Shown here piece by piece: positions 627-42,699 of a DNA stretch of 64,000 nt; position 1 is the first letter of the stretch; every line of letters begins with the position of its first letter. A program made the position numbers and the translations under genes. The notes under the pieces were generated by a model that was not told the DNA's origin, searched no databases, and was given only the letters and a program-made list of their open reading frames with translations. This DNA comes from Candidatus Hodarchaeota archaeon (GTDB lineage: Archaea; Asgardarchaeota; Lokiarchaeia; Sigyniarchaeales; SOKP01). The stretch spans positions 8,210-72,209 of the forward strand of contig JBHLJZ010000006.1 of NCBI GenBank assembly GCA_048887165.1, in the 5' to 3' direction.

Positions 627-2468
627 TTAATATAAATCTTTAATTACAAATTCTAATCCAAGTTCACTTAGTGTTTGTTCTGTAGGGTATCCATTTTCAG
701 GATTCCACCCTATAGCTTCACAGTATCCTTTAAAATCTGCTTTATAGTCGACTCCAACTGTCCTTTCAGGTATCTTATTTTTAGCAATATCAACTCCTTC
801 TCGTACTGTAAAAGCTTGTCTTAGGGTTTGGATTCTTACTCCTGCTCTTAATAATTCATCCATATTTATATCCCAACCTGTAGCTGATTTAATAAAATCA
901 GTTAAAGGATACTGTTGAAAGAAATATGCGAATTGACACAAACCTACACAACTAGTTGTCTGCCAAAGTGCAGAAGAAAGCTTTAAAGCTTCATTTCTTT
1001 CTTCTCCAGGGCGTTTAAATTTTTTAGGTAAGCTAAAACCTGGAAATAGTCCATCCGGTTTCAACATAGGTCCTCCCGCCATCATATCTAAACTTCCTGA
1101 TGTATGTCTACCAGGTGTAGGATCAAAAGCAAATGACATTCCCATAGACTTATAATATTTTGGTGAATGCATCCCTAATTCTTGACCCATAGAATGGATA
1201 GCATATTCAGCACTACCTTTCCCGATTTTTTCAGCAGCAATTTTGGACCCGTCAGCTAAAATATCACCAATACCTTCACGATTAATCACTTTTTTAACTA
1301 GTTCTATAATAGCTTCTGAATTTCCCCATTTTAATTTCAATCCTTCAGTATCATCTAAGCCCAGAATCCCATTTTCAAAGCATTCTATTGCAAATGCAAC
1401 TGTTCCACCAGCAGAAATCGTGTCTAAACCTGCTCTATTACATAAGTCATTTACAATGAAGATTGACTTTAAATCATCATTAAGTAACAAATGACCAAAA
1501 CTTGCACATGTTTCATATTCAGGTCGGTGTGTTTCTTCGAGATCAAGGTCTGGAATTTTCATTAAAGCACCGCATTGAACTGGACATCCAAAACAACCAA
1601 ATTTTCTGTCTTTATATTTAACGATTTCAATCCCAGTTAATTTACTTAAATTTTCCATTGGAAAATCTTCAGCAGAAGTTCCACCCCAATTTTTTATAGG
1701 AGCGTCTCCTGTTTTAGCTACCACATCATTCATCCATGGGGTTCCTAAATCTCTCCATAATTGTATTGAACCTGCTTCAGCTGATTTGATACCCTCATTA
1801 TATTGTCTTGTTAAATCAGTTAGAGTAATTTTATCAGCGATGGAAATTGACTGATTACCTTTTAAAACGATTGCTTTTAGTTTCTTTGATCCCATTACTG
1901 CTCCTAATCCTGATCTTGCCGCAATTCTTCCTTTATCATTGACTATTCCTGAAATCAATGATAATTTTTCCCCTGCTTGTCCTATACTAGCAAATTTTGC
2001 TCCAGCAAACTTTTCATTTAGTTTATTTTCGGTTTCTACTGCATCTAAACCCCATAGATCTGAAGCATCAACAATATTCTTCTCACCATCAATTATTGTT
2101 AAAATTTTTGGTATATCCGCCATCCCTTTAATTAAAATTCCATCATACCCGCATCTCTTAATTTCTGGACCAAAAAAACCTCCACAATGTGAATCACCCC
2201 AAGTTCCAGTTAAGGGAGATTTACCAGCAACCATATATCTACCAGTCAATGGTGCTATTGTACCTGTTAATAAACCTGGGAAAAAAGCTAATATGGATTC
2301 AGCTCCCAGCGGATCTGCTTTTGGAGGCATATTTTTATAAATATACTTCGCAGCTAATCCATAACCACCTAAATATTGACGATATAAATCTTCTGGAACT
2401 TCTTCTTCATTAAAAGCACCAGTAGAGAGATCAACCCATAAAATCTTGCCCATAAAACAATTAGTCAT
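627..2468 (-). CDS. aor: Aldehyde:ferredoxin oxidoreductase (tungstopterin AOR family)
   Basis: 613 aa. It has the N-terminal GKILWVDLSTG, the GLGAVMGSKKLKAIV motif, the CFGCPVQC (CxxCxxxC) 4Fe-4S ligand motif, and a length typical of the AOR family. Confidence 0.9.
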   Translation of the reverse strand: MTNCFMGKILWVDLSTGAFNEEEVPEDLYRQYLGGYGLAAKYIYKNMPPKADPLGAESILAFFPGLLTGTIAPLTGRYMVAGKSPLTGTWGDSHCGGFFGPEIKRCGYDGILIKGMADIPKILTIIDGEKNIVDASDLWGLDAVETENKLNEKFAGAKFASIGQAGEKLSLISGIVNDKGRIAARSGLGAVMGSKKLKAIVLKGNQSISIADKITLTDLTRQYNEGIKSAEAGSIQLWRDLGTPWMNDVVAKTGDAPIKNWGGTSAEDFPMENLSKLTGIEIVKYKDRKFGCFGCPVQCGALMKIPDLDLEETHRPEYETCASFGHLLLNDDLKSIFIVNDLCNRAGLDTISAGGTVAFAIECFENGILGLDDTEGLKLKWGNSEAIIELVKKVINREGIGDILADGSKIAAEKIGKGSAEYAIHSMGQELGMHSPKYYKSMGMSFAFDPTPGRHTSGSLDMMAGGPMLKPDGLFPGFSLPKKFKRPGEERNEALKLSSALWQTTSCVGLCQFAYFFQQYPLTDFIKSATGWDINMDELLRAGVRIQTLRQAFTVREGVDIAKNKIPERTVGVDYKADFKGYCEAIGWNPENGYPTEQTLSELGLEFVIKDLY

Positions 2469-3093: not shown

Positions 3094-4182
3094 TTAATAA
3101 TTTTTTCCTCTAGCAAGTATTTCCCATTTACCTATATATTCATTGTTCTTTATGACATGGACATAATCATAAAGATTAATTGTGATACATACATGAGCAG
3201 GAATTAATTCTAGTTTTTGTCCAATCTTAAAATCAGATCCAATCGCTTTTAATTGGGTATGCTCTTCATTCATGACTCTAAACTTTATTTTTGGATGATC
3301 TTTTATTATTGGCTTTCCATCTCCAATAGGAATTGCTTTTGTACCAGCATCAAGAGTAAATTCTTTTTTTCCAGTTTGGTTCTGAATTGTGCTTAAAACT
3401 GTTACAGCAGGTTCAAAAATTGGATTTACTCTATGCAAGTGTTCATCAGAAAAAACATAAGTACCTGGTTGAATTTCCGATACATCTTCAAATTTTGCAG
3501 CATACATGTATGTTGCAGAGCCTGATGTTGATACGTAATCGACATTAAAACCATTTTTACTTAACAGTTTTTTTGTTTCAACAATTTTTTTCATACATTC
3601 ATTTGTCATTAATTCTTTCTGCTCAAGATTCATCATAGGAGTCAAATGTCCTTCATATCCTTGCAATCCAACCAATTTTACCCCTGGAGTTTCTTGTATG
3701 AATTTAGCTAATTCCAACGCAGGTTCACCTGGATCCACTCCAGCTCGTCCTAATCCTAGATTTATTTCCATTAATACTTCAAGTTCTATATTTGCTCGAG
3801 TTGCGTATTTGCTTAGATCTAAAACATTTTTTTTTGAATCGACAGCACATCTTACTAATGCATATCTATTAAGCATTATCAGTCTTTTGATATGATCTGG
3901 ATCGATGACTTGATTCGCAATTAATATATCATCAATACCAGATTGAACAAAAACTTCTGCTTCTCCGACTTTAGCAACAGCAATTCCTTTTGCTCCTCCT
4001 GCTTTTAAAATCATATGTGCAATAATAGGTAATTTGGCTGTTTTTAGATGTGGTCTCAAATTTACCTTATTTTCCTTAACAAAATTTGCCATTGTCTCGA
4101 TATTTTTCTGCATAATGTCAAAATTTAGAACAAGGGCAGGCGTCGGTATTTTATCCTTCCAATTTTCGTCCAAATTTAACAA
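3094..4182 (-). CDS. Fold-type III PLP enzyme of the D-threonine aldolase / D-serine dehydratase (DSD1-like) family
   Basis: 362 aa. It has an alanine-racemase-type N-terminal barrel with LRPHLKTAK (the RPHxKTxK PLP-lysine motif of this family) and a C-terminal beta domain. Confidence 0.7.
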   Translation of the reverse strand: MLNLDENWKDKIPTPALVLNFDIMQKNIETMANFVKENKVNLRPHLKTAKLPIIAHMILKAGGAKGIAVAKVGEAEVFVQSGIDDILIANQVIDPDHIKRLIMLNRYALVRCAVDSKKNVLDLSKYATRANIELEVLMEINLGLGRAGVDPGEPALELAKFIQETPGVKLVGLQGYEGHLTPMMNLEQKELMTNECMKKIVETKKLLSKNGFNVDYVSTSGSATYMYAAKFEDVSEIQPGTYVFSDEHLHRVNPIFEPAVTVLSTIQNQTGKKEFTLDAGTKAIPIGDGKPIIKDHPKIKFRVMNEEHTQLKAIGSDFKIGQKLELIPAHVCITINLYDYVHVIKNNEYIGKWEILARGKNY

Positions 4183-4320
4183 CTCCTATAGTAGTTTATT
4201 ATTTAATATTAATTAAAACGTAATTTTCTAATTAAATTTAATCTTGAACAAAAACGTTAAATTTATTATTTAATTATTTTTTTATACCAATTAATCGAAT
4301 AATTTTGAGGTGAAATCTAA

Positions 4321-4626
4321 ATGGGAAAATTTATGATTAGAGGATGGTATCCACCAAACAAATATAAGGAATTATTGAAAGTTTATATGTCTAAGGACAA
4401 ACCTCCGTACCCAGATTTTCTAAAAAAAACTTTAAATGTAACTACTGTAAATGCAGATGGAAATTGGCAAACTTATGCATTGTATGAATTTCCAGATGAT
4501 AAAACTAAAGAGGCGACAAATGCTCTCTTGAAAAGATACGCTCTTTATACCACTGTTGAGGGTTATAGATTTGTTGTAGAAAATGTTATGGATGCTGAGG
4601 AGGGAATAAAGCTCCTTATGGGTTAA
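4321..4626 (+). CDS. Hypothetical small protein (101 aa)
   Basis: Intact ORF with ATG start and non-repetitive composition, in its own intergenic slot. I recognised no motif. Confidence 0.4.
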   Translation: MGKFMIRGWYPPNKYKELLKVYMSKDKPPYPDFLKKTLNVTTVNADGNWQTYALYEFPDDKTKEATNALLKRYALYTTVEGYRFVVENVMDAEEGIKLLMG

Positions 4627-7654: not shown

Positions 7655-8080
7655 TTAATAAGTGTAAACAAGGTCGCCCAATACAAAACCCATGGCAAAT
7701 AATGCCGCGGTAATAGGAACTATCAAAAATATCGCAATTATAATCGACTTTTTAATTCCGATTCTATGTAATAAATTCACAACATTTATTTCGACGAAAA
7801 CTGATATTACAATGGTGGGGATAAGCACTTCTAGAGGAGGTGGCCCACGCCAAATAAACATTCCTAACAACATCATTGGTGAACTTATAAAAAAAATTAT
7901 TCCAAATTGAATTCCAAAACTAATTGCAGTCCACTTCATACTTTTTCTTACTTGTGCTTTAGAAATAGCTAAACCGATTTTTAAAATGAAAATACACGCT
8001 ATTAACAATGAAATCATCATAATAATAGGAGTATAATTATCCATTGAACCAATTTGAGGTTGAAATAGAATTAGCAACAT
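7655..8080 (-). CDS. Small integral membrane protein (about 4 TM)
   Basis: 141 aa, strongly hydrophobic with several 20-residue apolar stretches. No motif recognised. Confidence 0.5.
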   Translation of the reverse strand: MLLILFQPQIGSMDNYTPIIMMISLLIACIFILKIGLAISKAQVRKSMKWTAISFGIQFGIIFFISSPMMLLGMFIWRGPPPLEVLIPTIVISVFVEINVVNLLHRIGIKKSIIIAIFLIVPITAALFAMGFVLGDLVYTY

Positions 8081-8278
8081 CTTAAATTCCTAAATGTATC
8101 TTTAATTTTATGTATTTAATTCATAAACTTATAAAAGATACATAAAAGATTTTTGATTTAAAGTTAATTTTTTTAATCAAAGGTTTTAAAATAAAATAAT
8201 ACATTAAACTTCATATTAATTATAAAACCAAAAAGATTGGAGGAAATTTCAAAAAAAGAAAAGAAGGAATGATATGCA

Positions 8279-10255
8279 ATGGTAGAAACTAAGAACATTC
8301 AAGTTAATGAAAGCGATGATATCCGAATTTTCATTGCAATTTGTCAATGAGGCCTAAATGTTGCAGAAATTATTGACACTGTAGCCTTATCAGAGTTTTC
8401 GAAAACATTACCAAATGTTGTCGAGGCTGTAGACTATATATCATTATGTACTGAGCCAGGAGCAGAATTTATTAAAGAAAAAATGATTGAGAGTAATGCT
8501 AATCGATTAGTAGTAGCTTCTTGTACTCCAAAAACTCATGAACCGGTCTTTAAAAGTGTTCTTGAATCAATGGAGTTAGATCCATCGTTTTTAGAATTCG
8601 TTAATATCCGTGAACATTCAAGTTTCGTTCATAGACAAGATAAACAAGGAGCACAGAGTACCGCAGAAGACGCTATTCGATCTGGAGTTGCTAGAGCTGC
8701 ACTTTTAGAGAAAATTTTAATAAAAGAAGTTGATATAACTAAAAAAGCTTTAATTATCGGTGGAGGAGTTGCAGGCTTAACTGCTGCTGTAGATTTGGCT
8801 GATGAAGGGTTTGAGGTGTACTTAGTTGAGAAAAGTCCTACTATCGGTGGAAAAATGGCGATGCTCGATCGTACCTTTCCCACTGATGACTGTAGTATTT
8901 GAATATTAGGACCAGTTATGCTAGAAGCTGCAAGAACCCCAAGATTAAATCTTTACACCTATAGTGAAATTGAAGATATATCTGGATTTGTAGGAAACTT
9001 TAAAGTAAAAATAAGGAAGAAAGCAAGATATGTAAATAATGACTGTAATGGATGCGGTTCGTGCTTTGAAGTTTGTCCTGCTTACGGGTATGATGAATTT
9101 AATGAAGGGTTGAATCCCCGAAAAGCAATATATATCTCTTTTGCTCAAGCTGTACCTTCTATTGCTCAAATTGATATGACAAGATGTATAAAATGTGGAT
9201 TATGTGAAGGTGTTTGCGAAGTCGATGCAATAGATTTTGACCAACAAGATGAAATTGTAGAAATAGAAGTTGGTTCTATTGCTGTTGCAACTGGTTGGGA
9301 TGAATATAAACCAGAAATAGGATATTTAGGTTATAATGTTTATCCTAATGTTATAACTCAAATGAAACTAGAAAGAATACTAGCTCCAAACGGTCCAACA
9401 GTTGGACATCTTGTTAGACCGTCTGATGGAAAGAAGCCAGAAAAAGTCCTATTTATTCAATGTGTAGGTTCAAGAGATTTATCAAGACAAACCTACTGTA
9501 GTGCGGGAGTATGTTGTATGATTTCAATTAAAAATACTAAGCTCATTAAACAGCATTATCCTGAAATCGATATAAGTGTTGCGTATATGGATATAAGAGC
9601 TGCTGGTAAGAATTATGAGGAATATTTTACAGCGTCTCGAAAAGAGGGCATTAAATACATACGGACTAATGTTTCAAAAATTTATGAAGATCCTGAAACC
9701 CATAATCTCAAAGTCATATTACAAAATACATTAAGTAATACTGGATTAAAAGAGTACGAATATGACATGGTTGTGTTATCTGCTGCAATGCTTCCAGCGA
9801 GAGGAGTAGAGAAAATAGGAAAGATATTGAAACTTGAAACTAGTCAAGACGGATTTTTTAAGGAATTTCACGCACGTTTAAATCCAATAGATACAAAAAT
9901 CCCTGGAATTGTACTTGCTGGAGTTGCACAGGGACCTAAATCAATCGCAGAATCAATTGCTCAAGGTAGAGCTGCAGCATCTTCTCTTGCAAGATTAATG
10001 GGAAAAGATAAATATAGAATTTTGCTGATTCGAGCTACAGTTGATACTGAAAAGTGTGCAAAATGTGGATTATGTGAATTAAATTGTCCTTACGATGCTA
10101 TTCAAACTACAGCCGAAGGTGCTGTTGTTGATGAGATCTTATGTAGAGGTTGTGGCTCATGTTTAGCTAATTGCCCTTCAGAAGCTATAACACTACGATA
10201 TTATCGAGAACCTCAATATGAAAAACAAATAGATGCTATATTAGAGGAAATATAG
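8279..10255 (+). CDS. hdrA: Heterodisulfide reductase subunit A (HdrA), a selenoprotein with two in-frame UGA codons
   Basis: ATG at 8279. In-frame TGAs lie at 8348-8350 and 8900-8902. Translation reads MVETKNIQVNESDDIRIFIAICQ[U]GLNVAEIID and RTFPTDDCSI[U]ILGPVMLEAARTP. Both TGAs sit at Cys positions of the conserved HdrA CxCG and DCSxC motifs. It also has the FAD fold GGGVAGLTAAVDLADEGFEVYLVEK and several CxxCxxCxxxC(P) clusters. The ORF track splits it into 8483-8902 and 8918-10255, which are in the same frame. Confidence 0.85.
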
Positions 10256-10268
10256 AGAGGTGGTTTAT

Positions 10269-10721
10269 ATGGCAACAAAAGATAAAGTAAAGATTTTAGC
10301 ATTCATGTGTTGGAAGTGAGGATATGGTGCTGGGGACATGGCGGGAACTATTCGTGCTCAATATCCTGCAACAATTAGACCGATTCGAATAAACTGTACT
10401 GGAAGAGTTACTCCTGGCTTAATGATGCGAGCCATTGGTAAAGGTGCTGATGGTGTAATTGTCGCAGGATGATATGAAGGAGAATGTGATTATGAAACAG
10501 GTAATCTAATAGCGGCTAAGAATGTTGAATTCACACGTGAAATATTAAAAACTGCTGGAGTTTCACCTGAAAGAATACAATTATTTCACTGCAGTGCCGC
10601 AGAAGGACAAAAATTCCAAGAAGAAGTAACTAGAATAACAGAAATTATTGAAAATTTGGGTAGCAATCCTTTAAAAAAATCTTCAGATTCAGAAGATAAG
10701 AAAAAGAAAAAAACCGAATGA
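10269..10721 (+). CDS. mvhD: MvhD/VhuD-type hydrogenase delta subunit (HdrA electron-transfer partner), a selenoprotein with two in-frame UGA codons
   Basis: ATG at 10269, terminal TGA at 10719-10721, in-frame TGAs at 10317-10319 and 10470-10472. Translation is MATKDKVKILAFMCWK[U]GYGAGDMAGTIRAQYPATIRPIRINCTGRVTPGLMMRAIGKGADGVIVAG[U]YEGECDYETGN. This matches the MvhD pattern (CxWCxY..D.AG, R..CTGRV, GADGV.V.GCxxGxCxY) with U at Cys positions. It is absent from the ORF track because of the TGAs. Confidence 0.85.
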
Positions 10722-10744
10722 ATGAATCTTATGAAAAAAAATTA

Positions 10745-10790
10745 GTCGTAAGATGACAAACCATAAAGCAATGGTCTCGGAAAAATGTTT
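10745..10790 (+). promoter_or_regulatory. Candidate SECIS-like hairpin in the 3' UTR of hdrA-mvhD
   Basis: This is the only relatively G/C-containing hairpin in the 3' flank. The parts are AUGA (10753-10756), stem ACCAU (10760-10764) / AUGGU (10771-10775), an A-rich loop AAAGCA (10765-10770), and a 3' GA (10780-10781). That GA could form tandem sheared G.A pairs with G10755/A10756. Folded by eye only, and helix I is weak. Confidence 0.3.
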
Positions 10791-10944
10791 TAAAACTTAT
10801 TTTTTGATTTTCAGATTATAATCCTATTAATAATATAATAAAAAATTGGTAAATCTTTTTAAACTCGTGATTCTAGTTAAATCCTAATTTTAATTTCATA
10901 GAAATTAAAAGACTATTGAAAATTAAATAAAAAAGTGAAAAAAG

Positions 10945-11595
10945 ATGGGTGAAGTTACAAGTACAACAGAAAAGATTACAGCACCAAAATTACTTGCTTT
11001 CATTGGTATGCTCTATACTCTTGCCTTAGGAATTACTTATTTCTATGCTGCTGCAAATCCCCTGAACATTCTTTGGGGAATAATTTGCTTAGTTATTGCT
11101 TTCTTAATCTTTGTAGCATTAGAACTGGTCGATTTTGGACCAGTTAAAATTCCTTATCAATGGTGGCTAATACTTATCTTTGGTGTAGTTTTATTGTTAT
11201 TTGCACTCTTTTTAGGAGGTAGTTATTTTCCTGCAATTCTCCTATTATTAGCAGCCTTAATTGAAGTAATAATGGAGAAGAAACCATATAAGGCTTCAAA
11301 AATGGTTCTTTTAGTCGGTATCGGTTTTTCAATCTATGAATGTTTCGATTTATTCATATCTGGAGGAGCTATTCCTATTTTAAATGGAGTTTTCGGTTTG
11401 ATTTTACTTATTATTTTACTTCTGATCTTATTTGATGTCGTAGATTTCAAAGTCATAGATTATTCCTGGTGGTTAGTTCTACTAATAGGATTTGTCATCT
11501 TTATTTGGGTATCTCCTTTAGCAACAGGTGTTCTTACTGGATTTGGAGGAACTCTTATATTAATAGCATTTGTACTTATAATGTTGGCATTATAA
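10945..11595 (+). CDS. Integral membrane protein with an internal duplication
   Basis: 216 aa, almost entirely hydrophobic. The two halves share ELVDFGPVKIPYQWWLILIFGVV and LFDVVDFKVIDYSWWLVLLIGFV. Confidence 0.55.
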   Translation: MGEVTSTTEKITAPKLLAFIGMLYTLALGITYFYAAANPLNILWGIICLVIAFLIFVALELVDFGPVKIPYQWWLILIFGVVLLLFALFLGGSYFPAILLLLAALIEVIMEKKPYKASKMVLLVGIGFSIYECFDLFISGGAIPILNGVFGLILLIILLLILFDVVDFKVIDYSWWLVLLIGFVIFIWVSPLATGVLTGFGGTLILIAFVLIMLAL

Positions 11596-11730: not shown

Positions 11731-13038
11731 ATGGGTAAAAATTTACTAGTCAAAGCTGAAAATCAATTTCTAAAAGCTGAAAAATTATTTAAAGCCAGAC
11801 AATTTAAGAAAGCAGGGAAACTTTTCCATAATTCGGGGCAAGGTTTTCTAGAAATTCACAAGTATGAATCAGCTAGAGATAGCTTCATTAATTCTGCTAA
11901 ATCTTTTTTAGAATCTGAGAAATTTGATACTGTTCTTAAACTATATAGGTTAGCCGCTAGAGCATCCTTGCATAATGAAAGGTATCTAGAAGCTAATGAA
12001 TTGTATCGTAATGCTCTTAATTATATCTCAAATTTAAAAAGTGCTAACGATCAAAATGCTCAATATTTATTATTTTCAATATTATCATACCTATGCCTAT
12101 TTATAAAGGCTCAACAAGAAGAAGCTTTGGATTTTTTAAAAAGGATTCAAAAAAAAGTTGATAATCAATATTTTAAGGAAAGTCCTTTAATAAAAATTGC
12201 AACGAATTTAACTATTGCACTAAGAGACAAAAATAAAAGTTCAATTGAGAGAGTAAAGGATAATATAAATGATTATAAATTCAATAATGTTGAAACAGAC
12301 CTTTTAAGGAAAGCTCTGATGATAGCAGAATGTCAAACTTCTCCATTAACGTCATTTGAATTAGACAAAAAGCAATATACTACGAATGATAAGATTAAAC
12401 TCAAATTGGATGTTAAAATGAAACCATTACAAACTATTTTTGAAGATGGATTTTATAACTATAAAACTGAAAATATTGAAATAAATAAAGTCAGCATTCA
12501 TCTATCAGATAATCTTACTGTAAGCAATAAACCTAATTTTCCGCTCAAACTAGAATTAACTAATGATTTTGAAATAAATTATGTAATTAAGCCTCACTTT
12601 CAGCTTGATAAACCCTATATCGGTCCTATGGATCTAATTTTTGAATTAAATGATAATTTGTTATTTATATATACAACAAATATTATTGAACCTAATATTC
12701 TCTCTCCTCCTGCAAGTCTATCTGTCTCAATTAAAAATCTAAGACCTCCGTTAATTGGACAAACATTTCCTTTAGAGATCCTCGTTGAAAATAAAAGCGA
12801 AGGTGAAGCATTAGATGTAAATATTGATGTTGAATTTCCTGATGAATTGAAAATAATGAGAGGAACTACAAATAAACAAATATATTCTCTTAGGTCTAAT
12901 GAAGATTTGAAATGGGAAACAAATTTAAAACCCACAGAAGCAGGAGATTATGTAATAAAATTTAATATTAAATTTACCGATCCTGATCAGAATATGATTG
13001 AAGAAGTTAAAGAGTTTCCATTTTCCATAAAACTCTAG
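11731..13038 (+). CDS. Cytoplasmic protein with an N-terminal TPR-like helical repeat region and C-terminal beta-sandwich (CARDB/DUF11-like) domains
   Basis: 435 aa with no signal peptide. The first ~200 aa are helical hairpin repeats (A..F..AAK.F type). The C-terminus, PLIGQTFPLEILVENKSEGEALDVNIDVEFPDELKI...TEAGDYVIKFNIKF, resembles CARDB-type Ig-like domains. Confidence 0.45.
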   Translation: MGKNLLVKAENQFLKAEKLFKARQFKKAGKLFHNSGQGFLEIHKYESARDSFINSAKSFLESEKFDTVLKLYRLAARASLHNERYLEANELYRNALNYISNLKSANDQNAQYLLFSILSYLCLFIKAQQEEALDFLKRIQKKVDNQYFKESPLIKIATNLTIALRDKNKSSIERVKDNINDYKFNNVETDLLRKALMIAECQTSPLTSFELDKKQYTTNDKIKLKLDVKMKPLQTIFEDGFYNYKTENIEINKVSIHLSDNLTVSNKPNFPLKLELTNDFEINYVIKPHFQLDKPYIGPMDLIFELNDNLLFIYTTNIIEPNILSPPASLSVSIKNLRPPLIGQTFPLEILVENKSEGEALDVNIDVEFPDELKIMRGTTNKQIYSLRSNEDLKWETNLKPTEAGDYVIKFNIKFTDPDQNMIEEVKEFPFSIKL

Positions 13039-14321: not shown

Positions 14322-15860
14322 ATGAAACTTAAAGTAAAAAAAATTAACTTTGAAACTGGTAATACTAAAGATATCGTTTTAAATATTAAAGACGCTCAAG
14401 AAATAGGTCAAAAAGCAGGAGAACGGGTTTTTCTTAAAAATGTTAAATCAAAATCAATTGATGATAAATTTTGGGTTGCTATTGTTCAAATAGATTATTC
14501 AGGCTTTATTGTAGAACCTGGCGAGATCGGGATTTTCTCAGATATATTAAGAGAGAAGAAGGAGTTAAAAGAGGGTAATATAATATCAGTTAAACCTGCT
14601 GATCCACCTGATTCCTTTAAATATATAAAAAAGAAGATAAATGGAGAGAAAATAGACGGAGAAGAAATAAATAAAATCATTTCAGATGCCATTTCTGGCT
14701 CACTCTCTAAAATTGATCTAGCTGCATTTATTACAGGGGTCTCAATAAACGGAATGGACAATGAAGAAATGACAGCCTTAACATTAGCAGAAGTAAGAAG
14801 TGGAGAAATCTTTTATTTCGGAATGGATGTATATGATAAGCATTCAACAGGAGGTGTTCCTGGAAATAAGGTCTCTTTAATTATAGTACCAATCGTCGCT
14901 GCTGCTGGTTTAACAATTCCAAAATCATCTACAAGGGCAATAACATCTCCTTCGGGAACAGCCGATAGTATGGAAGTTTTAGCGCCTGTTGCATTTGATT
15001 CGGATGAGTTGAAAGAAATAGTGGCAAAAGAAAATGCGTGTATTATTTGGGGAGGTGCACTTAATACATCACCAGCGGATAATATATTGATTGAAATTGA
15101 GCGTCCCCTTCATATGGATCCTATGGGACTTATGATCCCTTCAATCCTTACTAAGAAATTGTCCTTGGGTGTTAAAAAGCTTATTTTAGATATTCCGGTC
15201 GGCGAAGGTACTAAATTTCCTACTCCTGATAAAGGAAAACAGTTTGCTTATATTTTCAAAGAGATTGCTAGCAATGTTGGCATTGAGGCTGAATGTGCTT
15301 TAACATTAGCCCATCAACCAATTGGACACACAATTGGGCCGGGAATAGAAGCAAAGGAAGCTCTTACATTATTAATGAATTATGATGCCGGACCAAATTC
15401 CCTGATTGAAAAATCTACAGATTTAGCAGGGATTATACTTGAAATGGGCGGTAAAGCACAAAAAGGCTTGGGACAAGCTCTGGCTAAAGATATTTTACGA
15501 TCTGGAAAAGCTTATGAAAAAATGAAAAACATTATTGAAGCTCAGGGAGGTGATCCAGATATTAAGCCAGAAGAAATAGAATTAGGACCACATATAAAAG
15601 AATTTTATGCAACAAAAGAGGGACATATCACGGGCGTTAATAATGCAATCATTAACCAAATCGCTAAAACTGCAGGATGTCCTCATTCTAAACGCTCTGG
15701 TGTGGAAATATTTAAGAAACAAGGAGCAAGAATAAAAGAAGGAGAACTAATTTTTAAGATATATTCAGAAAGTAAATCAAAACTTAATAAAGCTGAAAAG
15801 ATTTATAATTCGACTGGAGGCCCCATTATATTAGGGGGTATGATGATAGAAAGGATTTAA
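14322..15860 (+). CDS. deoA: AMP phosphorylase (archaeal DeoA-type, thymidine phosphorylase family with N-terminal extension)
   Basis: 512 aa. An ~85-aa N-terminal extension is followed by DKHSTGGVPGNKVSLIIVPIVAAAGLTIPKSSTRAITSPSGTADSMEVL, which matches my recollection of the archaeal AMP phosphorylase signature rather than bacterial TP. Confidence 0.75.
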   Translation: MKLKVKKINFETGNTKDIVLNIKDAQEIGQKAGERVFLKNVKSKSIDDKFWVAIVQIDYSGFIVEPGEIGIFSDILREKKELKEGNIISVKPADPPDSFKYIKKKINGEKIDGEEINKIISDAISGSLSKIDLAAFITGVSINGMDNEEMTALTLAEVRSGEIFYFGMDVYDKHSTGGVPGNKVSLIIVPIVAAAGLTIPKSSTRAITSPSGTADSMEVLAPVAFDSDELKEIVAKENACIIWGGALNTSPADNILIEIERPLHMDPMGLMIPSILTKKLSLGVKKLILDIPVGEGTKFPTPDKGKQFAYIFKEIASNVGIEAECALTLAHQPIGHTIGPGIEAKEALTLLMNYDAGPNSLIEKSTDLAGIILEMGGKAQKGLGQALAKDILRSGKAYEKMKNIIEAQGGDPDIKPEEIELGPHIKEFYATKEGHITGVNNAIINQIAKTAGCPHSKRSGVEIFKKQGARIKEGELIFKIYSESKSKLNKAEKIYNSTGGPIILGGMMIERI

Positions 15861-15910: not shown

Positions 15911-17413
15911 ATGCCCTTAACTCCTAAAGCTATTTATAAAGATCTCGAAAGTAATGAATTGGATAAATCGTCTGCTATTGAACTGTTAATTGCTTTAATA
16001 GAGAATGCTGAAAATATTAATACCCGAATAGAAAGTATTGAAATATTAGAAAAGGTTAATGTAAAAGATAAAAGGGTTTTCAGTGTTTTAGAAAATCTAT
16101 TTATCTCCGACAGTAATGATAAAGTAAGATGCATTTCCTCTAAAGTGCTAAAAAATCTTTTTTTAGATGAAGCAATTCCTGTATTAAAATGGGGATTGCA
16201 GCATGAAAAATCTGTTAGTCCTCTAATCGCCATAATAACAAATTTAGGTGAAATTAATACTAAAAAAGCAAAATCAGTTCTGCTTAAAAAAATCCAAGAG
16301 ATTAATAAAAAGAAATACAAATACAACGTTAAAAATTTAATTGAACAGAAAACTTTCGATCAGCTTTCAAATAAAGAAATAGCTGAGATATTAATAAACT
16401 ATTATGTTATATCTTCATTAAAATTGAAATTTGGCTATGTTAAATTTGAATACGATAGAAATGGTACTATTATAAATCTCGACTTATCTAATGTAGAATA
16501 TCAAGGTTTAGGATTGAATAAATTAACGAATTCTCTTGAATCGATCCTATCTCTTTCTTTTCTTAAGAAATTGGATCTTAGCAATAATCAGATAAAAAAT
16601 CTACCTGAAAATATCAAAGAATCGAAAATTTTAGAGTATTTTGATATGAGTTTTAATGATCTATCTCGACTTCCAGAATCCATTTCATCATTACCAAACC
16701 TTAAAGTGTTAAATTTGAAATCTAATCATATACGATATATCCCAGAATCAATAGGTTCGCTCGTTAACCTTGAAGTGTTAATTCTGAGGGATAATTATTT
16801 AAATAAACTACCTAATGCGATTGGATTACTTTCAAGTTTAAAGCTTTTGGATCTTCATCATAACCGACTAAATCAACTTCCTCAAAATTTTAATTCTTTA
16901 GCATCTCTAATTGAGCTTGAATTAGGTTGGAATAAATTGGAAACCGTACCAAATAATTTAAAAGGACTTATTTCTATAGAAAAGTTAAATCTTGGACGAA
17001 ATCGATTAAATGAAATTCCTAATTGGTTAGGATCCTTATATAGACTCAAAGAGCTAAATCTTTATGATAATAATCTGAAAATAGTTCCTAATTCTCTCGG
17101 TAACTTATCCCACATTCAAGTAATAAATCTTAGAAATAATAAATTTAGTGACTTACCTAATTGCTTTAAAACTCTTTCTACTCTTAAGAAATTGAATTTA
17201 AGTTGGAATAAGATATCATCGCTTCCTAATTGGATTGACTCTTTATCTTCTTTAGAAGAATTAAATCTCTGGGCTAATAATTTAAAAGAAATTCCCGAGT
17301 CAATCGCGTCACTGCCAAATTTAAAAACTTTATATTTAAATTTCAATAAAATAGATGAGTTATCTAAACCTTTACGAGCTTTAAAAGATAGAGGAGTTAC
17401 TATTAAAATTTAA
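15911..17413 (+). CDS. HEAT-like repeat + leucine-rich repeat protein (paralogue 1 of 4)
   Basis: 500 aa. The N-terminal ~200 aa contain HEAT/PBS-lyase-like hairpins (ISDSNDKVRCISSKVLKNLF). About 12 23-residue LRRs follow (LxxLxxLxLxxNxLxxLPxxIGxL). The conserved C-terminal cap is LRALKDRGVTIKI. Confidence 0.85.
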   Translation: MPLTPKAIYKDLESNELDKSSAIELLIALIENAENINTRIESIEILEKVNVKDKRVFSVLENLFISDSNDKVRCISSKVLKNLFLDEAIPVLKWGLQHEKSVSPLIAIITNLGEINTKKAKSVLLKKIQEINKKKYKYNVKNLIEQKTFDQLSNKEIAEILINYYVISSLKLKFGYVKFEYDRNGTIINLDLSNVEYQGLGLNKLTNSLESILSLSFLKKLDLSNNQIKNLPENIKESKILEYFDMSFNDLSRLPESISSLPNLKVLNLKSNHIRYIPESIGSLVNLEVLILRDNYLNKLPNAIGLLSSLKLLDLHHNRLNQLPQNFNSLASLIELELGWNKLETVPNNLKGLISIEKLNLGRNRLNEIPNWLGSLYRLKELNLYDNNLKIVPNSLGNLSHIQVINLRNNKFSDLPNCFKTLSTLKKLNLSWNKISSLPNWIDSLSSLEELNLWANNLKEIPESIASLPNLKTLYLNFNKIDELSKPLRALKDRGVTIKI

Positions 17414-17478: not shown

Positions 17479-17718
17479 ATGGCAAATAAATTAAAAATTA
17501 TTACTGATGAAAATTTATGCACTGGTTGCAGAAATTGCCAACTAATATGTTCTTTTAACATCAGTGGAAAATTTTCAATAGAAAAAGCCTATATTAAGAT
17601 TGAAAATGCTTATGCCCTTCTCCCCCATATTAAGTTTCTGGACGAATGTACTAAATGTGGACTTTGTGTGCAATATTGTCTATACGGAGCTCTTAAGGAG
17701 GAAGGTGATTACACTTAG
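17479..17718 (+). CDS. Small 2x[4Fe-4S]-type ferredoxin, AOR-associated
   Basis: 79 aa with CTGCRNCQLIC and CTKCGLCVQYC. Its stop overlaps the GTG start of the downstream AOR gene (TAGTG). Confidence 0.8.
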   Translation: MANKLKIITDENLCTGCRNCQLICSFNISGKFSIEKAYIKIENAYALLPHIKFLDECTKCGLCVQYCLYGALKEEGDYT

Positions 17719-19619
17719 TGAACTTTTTCGGATTCACAGGTAAAATTTTAGACGTTAATTTAACTGACAATAAGATTATCTCATATCAAGAAGATATTGA
17801 GGACCTAAAGCGATTCATAGGAGGAATGGGGATGAATTGTCTTTTAGGCAGTCGAGTTTTGAAACCGGAGAGCGATCCGCTTTGTCCTGAAAATTATATT
17901 ATTTTGGGAGCAGGTCCTTTAGTAGGAACAATTACACCAGGTGCTTCTCGCATTGTTGGATTATCAAAATTTCCTGCAACTGGAGCAATAGCTAATTCAT
18001 GTGGAAGCATGAGTTTTGGTTTAAACCTAAAACTCTCAGGTTATGATCACATAATAATTTCAGGTAAATCAGAAAAACCATGCTATTTAGTGATTTTAGA
18101 TGATTATGTTGAAATTTTAGATGCTAAACAATTCTGGGGTAAAGACATTACTGAGACTACCAATTATTTCTGGAAAAAATATAAAAATAGTAGTGTAATT
18201 GCTATAGGTCAAGCAGGGGAAAATCTAGTTTATGGTGCTTTAACATTAATAGATAAGACATCAACATTTGGTCGAGGGGGATTAGGAGCAGTTATGGGTT
18301 CAAAACTTCTTAAGGGAATAGTAGTTAAAGGAACCGAAGATATAGAAATAGCAAATCCTCAACAATTTAAGAATTTATATGAAAAACAAATTAAGAGAAT
18401 AAAAGATTATCCCCATCGAGAATCATGGATTGAATTGGGAATGCTAAGAAATCTACCAGTAAACATAATGTTATATGCTAAAGGGGAAAAGACTAAAGCA
18501 AGAGAAACTAGTGAAAAATTTTATATAAAAAAGCTAAAAAAAAGACGTTTGGCTTGCCCATCTTGTCCAATGGGAGACAAAGACATCCTTGAAATTAAAG
18601 ATGGTGAATTTAACGGATTAATTACTTACACATCATCAGTTATTAATCCATTTATGATGCTAATAGTTGATGGCATAGACACCTCATACCAGGCAGTAAA
18701 AATTTTCGACTTAATTAGTAGATACGGATTAGATTCACTTACAATAACTTCATTGTTTGATTATTTAAGTAGATTATATGAAAAGGGTATTCTTACTAAA
18801 GAAAGGGTTGGCTTTGAATGGAATCGAGATTACAAAACTTTAACGAAATTAATTGAAATAATAGTGCATAGAGAAGGATTTGGGAATATATTAGCTAATG
18901 GTTGGAAAGATTTAGCTGAAATTAATCAAAAATTTGCGGAAGAAATGTATATAGTTAAAGGTTTAGATATTATTTGGGAACCTAGACTTACAAAACTAGG
19001 AACAATGGAATTTGAGCAAGTAGTAAATCCTAAAGGTGCTCACGTGGCTTCTGGCGGTTCACCAACATATGTTGGTGCGGCGAGTAGTATAGAAAAATTT
19101 AAAACACATTTTAAAAGAATGGGAATACCGGATTATGCTGTTAATCGTATTTTTTCTCCGCCTCGCGAAGCGATGGGTGTGAATGTTGGTAGATTAACCC
19201 GATATTCTGAGGATTGGTATACTGTTTTAACTAGTCTAGGATTATGTGTTCGAGCACAGATGAATCGTTTTTGGGGAATAGAACTAGTTACTGAGTTTTA
19301 TAATGCTGTAACTGGCTTTGATCTAAATTCTAGAGAATTAATAAAATCTGCTGAGCGTTGTTGGAATTTACTAAAGCTCATGAATATTAAGGCTGGTTTT
19401 TCTCGAAAAGATGATAAATTTCCCCAAGGTTGGTTCAAATTGCTAAAGTATGGCGATCAGAATCTCGAATTTAAAGATTTTTTTGGGGGGACAATTATCA
19501 CTAAAGAAATTGCTGATCAATTACTTGATGATTATTATGATGAGAGGGGTTGGAACAAAGACACTGGCTTACCCTCTCATGAAAAGATAAAAGAATTAGG
19601 TTTGGAGAAAAATCTTTGA
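17718..19619 (+). CDS. Aldehyde:ferredoxin oxidoreductase family protein (divergent paralogue)
   Basis: 633 aa with GKILDVNLTD, GLGAVMGSKLLKGIVVKG and an AOR-family C-terminal domain. The cluster motif is CPSCPMGD (CxxCxxxD) instead of CxxCxxxC. Confidence 0.85.
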   Translation: MNFFGFTGKILDVNLTDNKIISYQEDIEDLKRFIGGMGMNCLLGSRVLKPESDPLCPENYIILGAGPLVGTITPGASRIVGLSKFPATGAIANSCGSMSFGLNLKLSGYDHIIISGKSEKPCYLVILDDYVEILDAKQFWGKDITETTNYFWKKYKNSSVIAIGQAGENLVYGALTLIDKTSTFGRGGLGAVMGSKLLKGIVVKGTEDIEIANPQQFKNLYEKQIKRIKDYPHRESWIELGMLRNLPVNIMLYAKGEKTKARETSEKFYIKKLKKRRLACPSCPMGDKDILEIKDGEFNGLITYTSSVINPFMMLIVDGIDTSYQAVKIFDLISRYGLDSLTITSLFDYLSRLYEKGILTKERVGFEWNRDYKTLTKLIEIIVHREGFGNILANGWKDLAEINQKFAEEMYIVKGLDIIWEPRLTKLGTMEFEQVVNPKGAHVASGGSPTYVGAASSIEKFKTHFKRMGIPDYAVNRIFSPPREAMGVNVGRLTRYSEDWYTVLTSLGLCVRAQMNRFWGIELVTEFYNAVTGFDLNSRELIKSAERCWNLLKLMNIKAGFSRKDDKFPQGWFKLLKYGDQNLEFKDFFGGTIITKEIADQLLDDYYDERGWNKDTGLPSHEKIKELGLEKNL

Positions 19620-19722: not shown

Positions 19723-21222
19723 ATGGAATTATCTCCAGAAATTATTTATAAAAGTTATATTAATAATGAATTAGATAAGACATCAACTATTAATCAATTA
19801 ATTTCATTAATAGATAATAGTGATGATCTCCTTACTCGAGTTAAAAGTATTAAAACCCTAAATAAAATCAAACCAACAGATGATCGAGCATTTCATGTTT
19901 TAGAAAATTTGCTTGTCTCAGATTCACATAAAGAGATCAGATATGAAGCGGCTAGAGGTATAAAAAACAACTTTTTAAATAGATCCTTAGAACCGATAAA
20001 ATGGGTGTTTGCCCATGAAAAATCACTTAAATGTCTTTTAATTATTACTGAAATTATTGGAGAATTCAACACCTCATTTTCCAAATCTCTTTTAATTGAA
20101 AAAATAAACCAGTTTGATAATGATCAATTCAAAAAAAGCATAGAAGATTTAGGTAAAAAAGATAATTTAGAATATTTATCAGGAAAAAAATTATCAAAAA
20201 TTGTTCAAAATCAATTAATTATCGATTATTTAGAAAATAAGTTTGGTCAGGTTAATTACAAACTACACAATGGGATAATAACTCAATTAGATCTATCTGA
20301 CATTAGCACTCATATTTTTGGATGGCGAGTTCTTAAGAAATTTCCTTTTTTTTTGAAATATTTGAATTCAATTAAGATTTTAGATTTAAAATTTAATAGA
20401 TTATCAATTATCCCTAAATCTATAGGGAATCTTAATTCTCTAGTATATTTAGATTTGAGTTATAACAAAATTGAAAATCTACCTTCTTCAATAGGATTTT
20501 TAACATCACTAGAATTCTTAAATTTAAGATATAATAAATTAAGCAAATTACCACACTCAATAGGGGATCTTAAAAAGCTAAAAAAGTTAGACTTAAGATC
20601 AAATAATTTAAAAACTCTCCCCAAAACAATTAAAAAGTTATCTCAACTAAAGATTCTTGATTTACATGGTAATAAGTTAGATAATATAATCTCAAACTTT
20701 AAAGGGCTCTCCTCTCTTGAAGAATTAGAATTAGGTTTAAACAATTTGACTAAATTACCTGAAAGTTTAAAATCAATAAAATCATTAAAAAAACTTGGGC
20801 TCGGAGGAAATAGATTAAAAAGACTCTCAAATTGGATTTGTTCCTTTAAAAAGCTCGAAATTTTACAACTATATGATAATAAACTTATAGAACTTCCTAA
20901 AACTATAGGAAACTTAAGTTCACTTAAAACCTTAGTCTTATGGAATAATAACTTAGAGTCATTACCAAAATCATTTAGTTCACTATATAATCTTAAATCT
21001 TTGAATTTAAGTTGGAATAACTTTACTAAATTGCCTGAATGGATAGAATCGCTAAGATCATTAGAAGAATTGAGTTTATGGGGAAATAAATTAAATAGTC
21101 TTCCACAATCAATGGCAAATCTAAACTCGCTAAAAATTTTGGATTTAAATTTTACTTTTATTATCGATATTCCTGACTTCTTAAGAGATTTAGAAAAGAA
21201 AGGATTAGTGATATATAAATAG
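19723..21222 (+). CDS. HEAT-like repeat + leucine-rich repeat protein (paralogue 2)
   Basis: 499 aa with the same architecture as 15911-17413 (VSDSHKEIRYEAARGIKNNF, about 12 LRRs, C-terminal LRDLEKKGLVIYK). Confidence 0.85.
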   Translation: MELSPEIIYKSYINNELDKTSTINQLISLIDNSDDLLTRVKSIKTLNKIKPTDDRAFHVLENLLVSDSHKEIRYEAARGIKNNFLNRSLEPIKWVFAHEKSLKCLLIITEIIGEFNTSFSKSLLIEKINQFDNDQFKKSIEDLGKKDNLEYLSGKKLSKIVQNQLIIDYLENKFGQVNYKLHNGIITQLDLSDISTHIFGWRVLKKFPFFLKYLNSIKILDLKFNRLSIIPKSIGNLNSLVYLDLSYNKIENLPSSIGFLTSLEFLNLRYNKLSKLPHSIGDLKKLKKLDLRSNNLKTLPKTIKKLSQLKILDLHGNKLDNIISNFKGLSSLEELELGLNNLTKLPESLKSIKSLKKLGLGGNRLKRLSNWICSFKKLEILQLYDNKLIELPKTIGNLSSLKTLVLWNNNLESLPKSFSSLYNLKSLNLSWNNFTKLPEWIESLRSLEELSLWGNKLNSLPQSMANLNSLKILDLNFTFIIDIPDFLRDLEKKGLVIYK

Positions 21223-21255: not shown

Positions 21256-22635
21256 ATGGAATTAACACCTAAAAAAATTTACGAGGATTTCTTTAACAAA
21301 ATTATTGATAAAGTCTCAGCAATTGAACAATTATCAACTTTAATTGAAAACAGTAACAATATTAATATCCGAGTCAAAAGCATTGAGTATTTAGAAAAAA
21401 TTGGAAAAATTGGTGACAATTCAAATAATAAAGAAGAGAATTTATTTAACCTATTCGAAAACTTGTTGATTTCAGATTCAAGTGATAAAATACGAAATAT
21501 TGCTGCTACTTTTCTAAAAACTAACTTCCTTGAAAAATCATTTGAACCAATGATCTGGGCACTTCATCATGAATCATCACCCAATTGCTTAAAAGTTATT
21601 TTTGAATCACTTATTGGTATCATAAATCAATCAATAAAGAAAGAAGATGATATCTCAAAAGTAAATTTATTTAATAAAATAAAACAAATAAATGAAAAGG
21701 CTTTTAGAATAGATATTGAGTTATGGTGCGAAGGAAAACAAGAGGATGAGATTACAATCAAAGAAATAGCTGAAATTTTAATTAATTATTTCTGTTTAAT
21801 TTATTTACAGAAAACTGTATGGCGTTTAAAATTTTCAATTGAAAATTGCAGAATTGTCCAATTAGATTTTATTTTTAAGGGATTAACTAAATTGCCAGAA
21901 GCTATAAAGCACCTCAATTCTCTTAAAGTCTTAATATTGAGGTATAATCAACTTACTATCCTTCCAGATTGGATTGGTTCTTTAAATTCTCTAGAATCGT
22001 TAAATCTCAATGTAAATAACATAATAGAACTCCCAAAAACTATTGGTTCCCTAACTTCTCTCAAAGAGTTGCTCTTATGGAAGAATGAACTTAATTTTCT
22101 ACCAGACTCAATTGGATTAATGATTTCTTTAGAAAAACTGAATCTAAGATTAAATCAATTAATTGAATTACCCTCAAATTTTGGAAATCTATCATACCTT
22201 AAGGAATTAAATCTTCATGACAATAAGTTGGTCTCTATTCCAGAAACGATAGGTTTACTCTCCTCCTTAGAAATACTTAATCTAAGTTGGAATGAATTAA
22301 AAAAGATTCCAAATACTATAGGGGCACTATCTTCGTTGAAATCTCTAGATTTAGAAAGGAACGAATTATTATCCATCCCGTTATCAATTGGAAATTTAAG
22401 TTCATTAAAAGTGTTAAATCTTAGTGATAATAAGTTAAAAAAAATCCCAAAAACTCTTGGAAACCTGAAAAATTTGGAAATTTTAAACCTTTCCAGAAAT
22501 AATATTACTGAATTGCCTGAAACAATAAAGTTATTAACTTCACTAAAAGAAATTTATTTAGGAGAAAATAATTTTAAGAGTATTCCGAGAGATTTAAAAG
22601 AATTAGAAAGAAAAGGTTTAAAGATTTTTTATTGA
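21256..22635 (+). CDS. HEAT-like repeat + leucine-rich repeat protein (paralogue 3)
   Basis: 459 aa with the same architecture (ISDSSDKIRNIAATFLKTNF, AEILINYF linker motif, about 10 LRRs, C-terminal LKELERKGLKIFY). Confidence 0.85.
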   Translation: MELTPKKIYEDFFNKIIDKVSAIEQLSTLIENSNNINIRVKSIEYLEKIGKIGDNSNNKEENLFNLFENLLISDSSDKIRNIAATFLKTNFLEKSFEPMIWALHHESSPNCLKVIFESLIGIINQSIKKEDDISKVNLFNKIKQINEKAFRIDIELWCEGKQEDEITIKEIAEILINYFCLIYLQKTVWRLKFSIENCRIVQLDFIFKGLTKLPEAIKHLNSLKVLILRYNQLTILPDWIGSLNSLESLNLNVNNIIELPKTIGSLTSLKELLLWKNELNFLPDSIGLMISLEKLNLRLNQLIELPSNFGNLSYLKELNLHDNKLVSIPETIGLLSSLEILNLSWNELKKIPNTIGALSSLKSLDLERNELLSIPLSIGNLSSLKVLNLSDNKLKKIPKTLGNLKNLEILNLSRNNITELPETIKLLTSLKEIYLGENNFKSIPRDLKELERKGLKIFY

Positions 22636-30288: not shown

Positions 30289-31248
30289 ATGGCTTCATCT
30301 CCCAAGAAAATTTATGAAGATTATATTGAAAATTATGTAAATAGAACTATTGCTATAGAGTTATTGATTTCAATAATTGAAAATTCAGAGAATGAATCTA
30401 ATAGGTTTGAAGCTATTGAAATTTTAGATAAAATCAAGGCAAGTAGTCCGGAGATTTTTAAATTATATGAAAATTTGATGATTAGTGACTTAAATTCTAG
30501 AATCAGAGCACGTGCTATTTTATATCTTCCAAAATATTTCGTAGAAGAAGCTTTACTTCCATTAAAATGGGCAATTAGACACGAAGATTCATATGAATGT
30601 TTAATCAATATTATTAAAACTCTTGAAAACTACTATCCAAAGGAATCCCATTCAATCTTTTTAGAAGAAATAAAAAAAATCAGGAAGATTCGCTATTTAA
30701 ATTATGAAAAAAGGTATGAGAATAGAAAATTCAAAAAAGCATTAAAAAAGTTAATAAAATCGAGTCAAATTAAAAATTTTTCAAAAAACAAATTAGCTGA
30801 AATTTTAATCAATTATTTCACCATTCAAAATCTCTCTAGTAAATTCCCTAATATGTTTTTTGAGTTAGAATCGCAAAATGCTTTAGTAAGGGAATTAGAT
30901 TTATCTGATTACTTAGAGCATGAAGTTAAAGGAACTCCTTGGGGCTGGAAGAATAATATTCAATCAATTTCAGAAATAACTGGATTGGAAAATTTAAAAA
31001 ATCTAAAAAGTTTAGATTTATCTAATAATCTAATAAACGATATAAAAGATTTAATCGAATTAAAGAATTTAACTCATCTAATTTTGTCAAATAATAAGAT
31101 TAGTCATCTTGAAAATCTTGACTATATAAAAAAATTACCAAATCTTAAAGTTATAGATCTTAGTGGAAATGATATTGTTAATTTTTTTAATCCTGAAGAC
31201 TTTAAGACAAAAACTAGAATTCTCGTAAGAAGATCACTTATAGAATAG
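30289..31248 (+). CDS. HEAT-like repeat + short LRR protein (paralogue 4, SDS22-like 22-residue LRRs)
   Basis: 319 aa. The N-terminus is homologous to the other three (PKKIYEDY...AIELLISIIENSENESNRFEAIEILDKI, ISDLNSRIRARAILYL, AEILINYF). About 4-5 LRRs follow (LKSLDLSNNLINDIKDL...). Confidence 0.75.
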   Translation: MASSPKKIYEDYIENYVNRTIAIELLISIIENSENESNRFEAIEILDKIKASSPEIFKLYENLMISDLNSRIRARAILYLPKYFVEEALLPLKWAIRHEDSYECLINIIKTLENYYPKESHSIFLEEIKKIRKIRYLNYEKRYENRKFKKALKKLIKSSQIKNFSKNKLAEILINYFTIQNLSSKFPNMFFELESQNALVRELDLSDYLEHEVKGTPWGWKNNIQSISEITGLENLKNLKSLDLSNNLINDIKDLIELKNLTHLILSNNKISHLENLDYIKKLPNLKVIDLSGNDIVNFFNPEDFKTKTRILVRRSLIE

Positions 31249-42667: not shown

Positions 42668-42699
42668 CTAATTAATTTTTATAACTTGGTGATTTATTA

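Follow-up and report, generated by a model that had tools for sequence, protein, structure and literature searches.

The genes for HdrA and VhuD of Lokiarchaeota were all found in tandem, with very short spacers, by Mariotti et al. 2016 (PMC4989117). In that work, Loki VhuD comprised about 150 amino acids (aa) with two selenocysteine (Sec) residues, HdrA carried the canonical Sec and further ones, and a single selenocysteine insertion sequence (SECIS) element, the lokiSECIS, present downstream of VhuD only, was proposed to act on as many as six UGAs over about 2 kb (PMC4989117). With Huang et al. 2024 (PMC11227280), the description of this architecture came to cover 227 Sec-utilising Asgard genomes, and MvhD/VhuD (CxxU, two Sec) and HdrA (CxxU) are treated as standard archaeal selenoproteins in a 2026 review (PMC13188914). 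Here, an hdrA-vhuD locus was analysed in a stretch of 64,000 nucleotides (nt) from a Candidatus Hodarchaeota archaeon (contig JBHLJZ010000006.1 of assembly GCA_048887165.1, positions 8,210 to 72,209), referred to below as the window. We consider it highly probable that the locus is a two-gene Asgard (Loki-type) operon in which hdrA and vhuD both encode selenoproteins and four UGAs are read as Sec via one eukaryote-like SECIS in the 3' untranslated region (3'-UTR).

The shared-SECIS architecture of hdrA-vhuD is already known, and the window adds one more genome. As in the published Loki loci (PMC4989117, PMC11227280), VhuD has about 150 aa and two Sec, HdrA combines the canonical Sec with an extra one and ends on a non-UGA stop, and one SECIS (AUGA, 9-bp stem, 11-nt loop, GA) is located at the stop codon of VhuD, with no such element following HdrA. 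Nothing essential differs; the window represents a different genome, and an outer helix and a second hairpin are seen in addition.

The locus was also compared with VhuD and HdrA(u) of Methanococcales, as represented by the Hdr-Vhu-Fwd complex of M. maripaludis (PDB 9sfi, PMC13518236). Shared with this system are two VhuD Sec columns 51 residues apart, the HdrA Sec197 position, the adjacency of hdrA and vhuD, and the presumed role, in which a [2Fe-2S] adaptor links an electron-input module with the bifurcating FAD of HdrA. The window differs in that its HdrA has two Sec instead of one, and its VhuD is only distantly related to chain 9sfi_K (E = 1.3e-35). In Methanococcales, vhuGAUB come next after vhuD, whereas no hydrogenase gene is present in the 64 kb of the window. 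Each methanococcal gene has its own euryarchaeal-type SECIS (PMC11227280), in contrast to the one eukaryote-like SECIS found here.

The hdrA and vhuD genes and their in-frame UGA codons

The coding features of the operon are as follows.

8279..10255, + strand: hdrA, heterodisulfide-reductase subunit A-type flavo-iron-sulfur protein; 658 codons, ATG at 8279, stop TAG at 10253-10255
8348..8350, + strand: hdrA UGA codon 24, AICQ[U]GLNV, putatively read as Sec
8900..8902, + strand: hdrA UGA codon 208, DDCSI[U]ILGP, CxxU, canonical HdrA Sec site
10256..10268, + strand: hdrA-vhuD intercistronic spacer; 13 nt, with a Shine-Dalgarno-like GAGGTGG at 10257-10263
10269..10721, + strand: mvhD/vhuD (= frhD), predicted [2Fe-2S] adaptor subunit; 150 codons, two putative UGA-Sec codons, UGA stop
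10317..10319, + strand: vhuD UGA codon 17, FMCWK[U]GYGAGDMAG, CxxU motif, putatively read as Sec
10470..10472, + strand: vhuD UGA codon 68, GVIVAG[U]YEGECDY, 51 codons past codon 17, putatively read as Sec

An earlier note on this DNA, made from the sequence alone, had proposed an uncalled, 150-codon mvhD/vhuD-like gene 13 nt downstream of hdrA. The sequence reads as described: after a gap at 10256-10268, a frame opens with ATG at 10269, passes in-frame TGAs at 10317-10319 and 10470-10472 and ends with a stop TGA at 10719-10721. The statement that no open reading frame (ORF) is listed between 10256 and 10944 holds for ORFs of at least 60 aa; under the standard code, the sole listed piece of this region is a 44-aa fragment (10338-10472), and vhuD is broken into pieces of 16, 50 and 82 codons.

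For profile searches, Cys was put in place of both internal stops. The vhuD product matched Pfam FlpD (PF02662) with E = 1.3e-42 and 145.1 bits (cut-off 22.3) over profile positions 1-123 of 123, and PDB chains of VhuD/MvhD were matched with E = 1e-35 to 1e-30 (9sfi_K with E = 1.3e-35). Judged by this homology, the product is an MvhD/VhuD-type protein, as the earlier note had supposed.

Codon 17 is located in the peptide FMCWK-U-GYGAGDMAGTIR and codon 68 in GADGVIVAG-U-YEGECDYETGNLIAAK. Both columns are occupied by Cys in 9sw2_D and 8rvu_F and by a non-standard 'X' in the VhuD chain 9sfi_K, which was read as Sec since VhuD carries two Sec (PMC4989117); an alternation of Cys and Sec, suggested earlier as a check on orthologues, was thus found at both columns. 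Five Cys/Sec positions (C14, C/U17, C43, C/U68 and C73) are conserved across these three chains, and C14 and C73 are invariant among the 120 best database homologues. Of the earlier description of the two UGA columns as canonical Cys positions of a [2Fe-2S] protein, the column conservation stands, whereas ligation of the cluster is not established by that conservation. The residues that ligate the [2Fe-2S] cluster of MvhD were not found in the open-access literature. At least one of the two vhuD Sec residues is probably a cluster ligand, because a [2Fe-2S] cluster needs four ligands and only five Cys/Sec positions are conserved.

The hdrA product was matched by Pfam Fer4 (4Fe-4S ferredoxin) families and FAD/NAD Rossmann families, and its N-terminal 294 residues matched the PDB HdrA chain 5odc_A with E = 1.9e-96. 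In their N-terminal domain, 5odc_A and 8rvu_a carry a CxCG motif, and the column of U24 is that of its second Cys; extra Sec positions have been described in Loki HdrA (PMC4989117). The column of U208 corresponds to Cys197 of 5odc_A, the site at which M. maripaludis HdrA carries Sec197 (PMC13518236). By its sequence, hdrA is a selenoprotein gene with two UGA codons, a predicted canonical-site Sec included. The hdrA-mvhD bicistron had been said to contain four UGA-Sec codons, and four in-frame UGAs (8348, 8900, 10317 and 10470) are indeed present in the two genes together.

For comparison, related loci were collected by searching one genome per species with peptide patterns that allowed Cys at the Sec positions, so that bias, if any, would be towards Cys forms. 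This yielded 70 loci, nearly all from Asgard metagenome-assembled genomes (MAGs), mostly labelled Promethearchaeota. Of the fetched loci, L001 (Promethearchaeota MAG DZ2S.411) is closest to the window; the two are collinear for 8 kb, with 82% identity in DNA. VhuD proteins of the 70 loci are 70-92% identical to that of the window along the whole length, before and after each TGA. The first vhuD UGA column is TGA in 70/70 loci and the second in all 69 loci that reach it (L069 ends before), with a Cys codon at neither column (0 of 70 and 0 of 69, respectively). The spacing between the two vhuD UGAs is 51 codons in 48/48 loci measured. Together with the full-length FlpD match, this conservation of the TGAs goes far beyond what chance would produce. 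Among the 60 loci with readable hdrA, the gap between hdrA and vhuD measures 4-55 nt in 51, 28 of them with 13 nt, gap lengths in related loci being counted one nt longer than the window's own figure. In all 60, the hdrA stop is TAA or TAG, with TGA absent, as expected if the downstream SECIS acts on hdrA too.

Two of the fetched loci stand apart. In L067 (JBHLLO010000028.1, match 4001-4445), the frame of the vhuD orthologue is lost soon after the first Sec codon, by assembly error or as a pseudogene. L037 (JAWODV010000081.1) was binned as a Kosmotogaceae bacterium, yet its hdrA-vhuD is of Asgard type, with 77% aa identity and both columns TGA; this contig is probably mis-binned.

The in-frame TGAs could alternatively be true premature stops, produced by pseudogene decay or sequencing errors. 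Under the standard code the vhuD ORF does fall into fragments of 16, 50 and 82 codons, and one related locus (L067) is frameshifted. The same TGAs are, however, present in 70/70 and 69/69 relatives, with 70-92% aa identity on either side of each, both lie on Cys/Sec columns, and a covarying SECIS is located 3' of the gene. We regard premature stops as next to impossible.

As another alternative, TGA might be read genome-wide as tryptophan or another standard amino acid, as in codes 4 or 25. In the protein databases, W is indeed found at both Sec columns in 120/120 of the best homologues, as such a table prints. We attribute this W to gene callers that applied a TGA=Trp model to short contigs of low GC. 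In the window, TGA ends 7/45 long ORFs, vhuD itself has a TGA stop, and coding sequence under code 11 makes up 88%; TGA is thus an ordinary stop, and there is no genome-wide reassignment. Moreover, solved homologues have Cys or Sec at the two columns and in no case Trp, and the in-frame TGAs of the window are confined to hdrA and vhuD, beside its only SECIS. A reading of TGA as a standard amino acid is therefore extremely improbable.

The SECIS element downstream of vhuD

Three features were located at and behind the end of vhuD.

10722..10756, + strand: lokiSECIS / type I eukaryotic SECIS (eSECIS)-like element, starting 0 nt past the vhuD stop codon
10714..10780, + strand: extended SECIS context, 67 nt, three helices
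10788..10811, + strand: T-tracts (T4, T6, T4); aligned loci likewise have T-rich sequence downstream of the element

The SECIS at 10722-10756, which was absent from the account of the earlier note, makes recoding of the UGAs plausible. It consists of AUGA (10722-10725), a perfect 9-bp helix II (10726-10734 paired with 10746-10754), an apical loop of 11 nt (AAAAAAAUUAG, 10735-10745) and GA (10755-10756). Every lokiSECIS feature listed in PMC4989117 was found, namely AUGA, the AAAAA loop start, the loop end AG and GA. In a motif scan of both strands of the 64 kb, 10722-10756 was the sole perfect match; no second AUGA-stem-GA motif with 0 mismatches was present in 8279-10721 or the rest of the window. 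The element therefore sits at the end of vhuD, with none after hdrA. Likewise, no further lokiSECIS copies were found by the scan in the fetched loci.

The fold of the element gave z = -3.0, and none of 200 shuffles was as good. Covariation of helix II was assessed on 55 distinct orthologous elements. Double-sided changes were present in 8/9 pairs, 92.3% of cells pair compared to 30-48% in slid controls, and the observed covariation was reached by 0/500 shuffles. AUGA and GA are invariant across 58 aligned sequences, and the apical loop is 11 nt long in 51/58 loci. The helix II pair adjoining the AUGA/GA core (10726/10754) is non-standard in 21/55 sequences, which recalls the non-Watson-Crick pair beside the eukaryotic SECIS quartet. 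Across the loci, the vhuD stop codon is often UGA and adjoins the AUGA core or overlaps with it; a UGA stop beside the core fits the minimum-distance rule (PMC4989117).

Like a eukaryotic type I SECIS (kink-turn core), the element occupies a 3'-UTR site from which it would act at a distance, and has an AUGA/GA quartet to either side of the upper helix, an apical loop with unpaired adenines and an internal loop that is closed by a lower helix. Compared to eukaryotic SECIS, the upper helix is shorter here (9 bp), and an extra hairpin is present on the 3' side of the internal loop. The Rfam library includes a eukaryotic SECIS model; Rfam gives no SECIS match here. Asgard archaea are not known to have an SBP2 homologue (PMC4989117).

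The core is embedded in a larger structure. An outer helix I is formed by CCGA (10714-10717) and UCGG (10777-10780), and the 4-nt spacer between helix I and the core contains the vhuD stop codon. Helix I is invariant in 55/58 sequences, and the three exceptions stay paired (L056 GCGA/UCGC, L066 UCGA/UCGA, L046 CCGG/UCGG); independent compensatory variants number two among the 58 loci. CCGA is kept also in loci where it lies past the stop codon, and its conservation is thus not a coding constraint. Past helix II, a GAC is invariant in the aligned loci, and a second hairpin (ACCAU/AUGGU, 10760-10764 with 10771-10775) is 91% paired, with compensatory change in 2/5 pairs. Minimum free energy and centroid folds of the window sequence both correspond to the three-helix structure (z = -3.06). 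RNAalifold on the wide alignment recovered helix II alone. Helix I was scored by motif-anchored counts; MAFFT placed the difference between 4-nt and 5-nt spacers as a terminal gap.

Helix I and the second hairpin are not described for hdrA/frhD in the main texts of PMC4989117 and PMC11227280, which model the core, upper stem and loop. An 'extra stem' and 'GAC' have been reported for methanococcal VhuD SECISes (PMC4989117). We regard the three-helix context as a modest refinement, possibly not described before. More tentatively, and with considerable doubt on our part, the conserved 67-nt three-helix element as a whole might be the SECIS, reaching beyond the published hairpin. This gene-specific extension might then be what enables a single SECIS to recode as many as six UGAs spread over more than 2 kb and two cistrons, and would be the counterpart both of the methanococcal VhuD 'extra stem + GAC' and of helix I of eukaryotic SECIS. 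The T-tracts at 10788-10811 are a probable archaeal oligo-T transcription stop behind the SECIS.

Each UGA could instead have its own bacterial-type SECIS hairpin within the coding sequence, or hdrA a separate SECIS. Bacterial HdrA and MvhD selenoproteins use local downstream SECIS hairpins, and contig L037 is labelled as belonging to a bacterial MAG. In the window, the 70 nt past each of the four UGAs folded no better than shuffles (z = +0.16 to +0.99), which excludes bacterial-type local SECIS. There is also no second perfect AUGA-stem-GA motif in the window, the 13-nt gap between hdrA and vhuD is too small for a SECIS, and the context is archaeal, with an intron-bearing tRNA and Asgard-type genes. 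Recoding through local or hdrA-specific elements is accordingly a very improbable explanation.

Proposed mechanism of recoding and electron transfer

In the proposed mechanism, hdrA and vhuD would be transcribed as one bicistronic mRNA. The SECIS at 10722-10756 would recruit the archaeal Sec-specific elongation factor and deliver Sec-tRNA(Sec) to UGA-paused ribosomes, and this single element would serve all four UGAs across the cistron boundary, up to 2374 nt upstream. That one SECIS serves both cistrons is the hypothesis of PMC4989117, and archaeal SECIS function without a strict distance limit has been reported in M. maripaludis (PMC9622424). The terminal UGA of vhuD, which abuts the SECIS, would be too near for recoding, and the hdrA stop, UAG, is not recodable.

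Separate transcripts might be assumed instead, with the SECIS serving vhuD only and the hdrA UGAs being decoded via an unrecognised signal or inefficiently. SECIS action over a cistron boundary is so far a hypothesis, and the first hdrA UGA lies 2374 nt from the SECIS, farther than the 520-679 nt tested in M. maripaludis (PMC9622424). On the other hand, that same study found no strict distance limit for archaeal SECIS (PMC9622424), and the 13-nt gap leaves no room for a promoter or terminator. In addition, tandem order and short spacing are near-universal in the related loci, and hdrA never stops with TGA in 60 loci, which is sensible if the SECIS acts on hdrA. A vhuD-only SECIS seems very unlikely to us.

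Under the preferred reading of one SECIS for both cistrons, HdrA and VhuD would form the core of flavin-based electron bifurcation as in methanogens. In the characterised systems, VhuD is the [2Fe-2S] adaptor through which a hydrogenase or a formate dehydrogenase docks onto HdrA, and electrons are bifurcated at the FAD of HdrA (PMC6019823, PMC13518236). By analogy with these MvhD/VhuD proteins, the vhuD product of the window may be a [2Fe-2S] carrier that relays electrons to HdrA (PMC6019823, PMC13518236). It would dock an electron-input module onto HdrA, and both this module and HdrBC would be encoded elsewhere in the genome. The earlier note had reported no adjacent mvhA/G or hdrB/C, and neither HdrB/C nor a [NiFe]-hydrogenase subunit (mvhA/G) is encoded in the whole 64-kb window.

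Sec insertion, the use of one SECIS by two cistrons and the redox role are thus suggested by the literature on related systems, and several points count against the proposal. Translation, Sec insertion and a single transcript lack direct evidence at this locus, and we know of none for any Asgard locus; a literature search found no experimental test of any Asgard SECIS. That a SECIS can act past a stop codon and a site of re-initiation is itself a published hypothesis. No genes for tRNA-Sec, EFSec/SelB, PSTK, SepSecS or SelD are present in the 64-kb window, and the Sec competence of the organism is presumed from its relatives. Finally, the Rfam SECIS families (eukaryotic SECIS_1 and bacterial SECIS_2-5) remained unmatched at E <= 10 in 8100-11000 and at gathering score in the window. 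Matches in 8100-11000 at E <= 10 were limited to chance snoRNA and miRNA hits. This silence of Rfam is in keeping with the published remark that lokiSECIS escapes standard tools (PMC4989117).

Genomic context and implications

The window is archaeal and Asgard-like, with a GC content of 30%. A tRNA gene at 42564-42668 (+) is tRNA-Ser(CGA) and not tRNA-Sec. It has a 21-nt intron and a long variable arm, and was found by Rfam and by intron-allowing ARAGORN, whereas default ARAGORN gave no tRNA at all. Small GTPases (Arf/Roc-family and Gtr1/RagA-like) are encoded at 34601-35644 (+) and 43775-44707 (-), and five leucine-rich repeat (LRR) proteins are encoded in the window. This group of GTPase and LRR genes, of eukaryote-signature type and located also at 15911-17413, 19723-21222, 21256-22635 and 30289-31248 (+), fits an Asgard origin. 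A RuBisCO large-subunit homologue (probably form III; 31282-32628, -) and an AMP/thymidine-phosphorylase-like gene (14322-15860, +) are components of the archaeal AMP salvage route. Two aldehyde:ferredoxin oxidoreductases are encoded at 627-2468 (-) and 17718-19619 (+), and a 1443-aa ORF at 36843-41174 (-) matched no Pfam family at E <= 1e-5.

The 'orphan' context of hdrA-vhuD, without partner genes nearby, is itself conserved, and the same housekeeping neighbours recur. Neighbours were counted in 64 loci, those in which mvhD could serve as an anchor. Orotidine monophosphate decarboxylase was found in 45 of these and the AMP/thymidine-phosphorylase-like gene in 40; 33 have an M24 peptidase. 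Small multi-pass membrane ORFs of no Pfam family flank the operon at 10945-11595 (+) (216 aa), present in 29/64 loci, and at 7655-8080 (-), present in 47/64. On the same strand downstream of hdrA-vhuD, a 435-aa ORF (11731-13038, +) is kept in 61/64 Asgard loci. It gave sub-threshold Pfam hints of an N-terminal SNAP-like alpha-solenoid (E = 0.001) and a C-terminal NEW3/DUF11-like beta domain (E = 0.004). ORFs 10945-11595 and 11731-13038 were rejected as redox partners; neither has a Pfam redox domain or Fe-S motifs, and each contains two Cys.

For genome annotation, the locus illustrates that standard gene callers miss vhuD or print its Sec codons as Trp, and that public protein sets mistranslate this selenoprotein. 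As W was found at both columns in the 120 best homologues, HdrA/MvhD modules can be under-counted or misread in catalogues of Asgard redox metabolism. Helix I and the extra hairpin, both conserved, offer concrete positions for mutational work. The locus is a further example of the published proposal of one eukaryote-like SECIS for several UGAs in two cistrons, and such sharing of one SECIS by two cistrons bears on how the eukaryotic Sec system arose.

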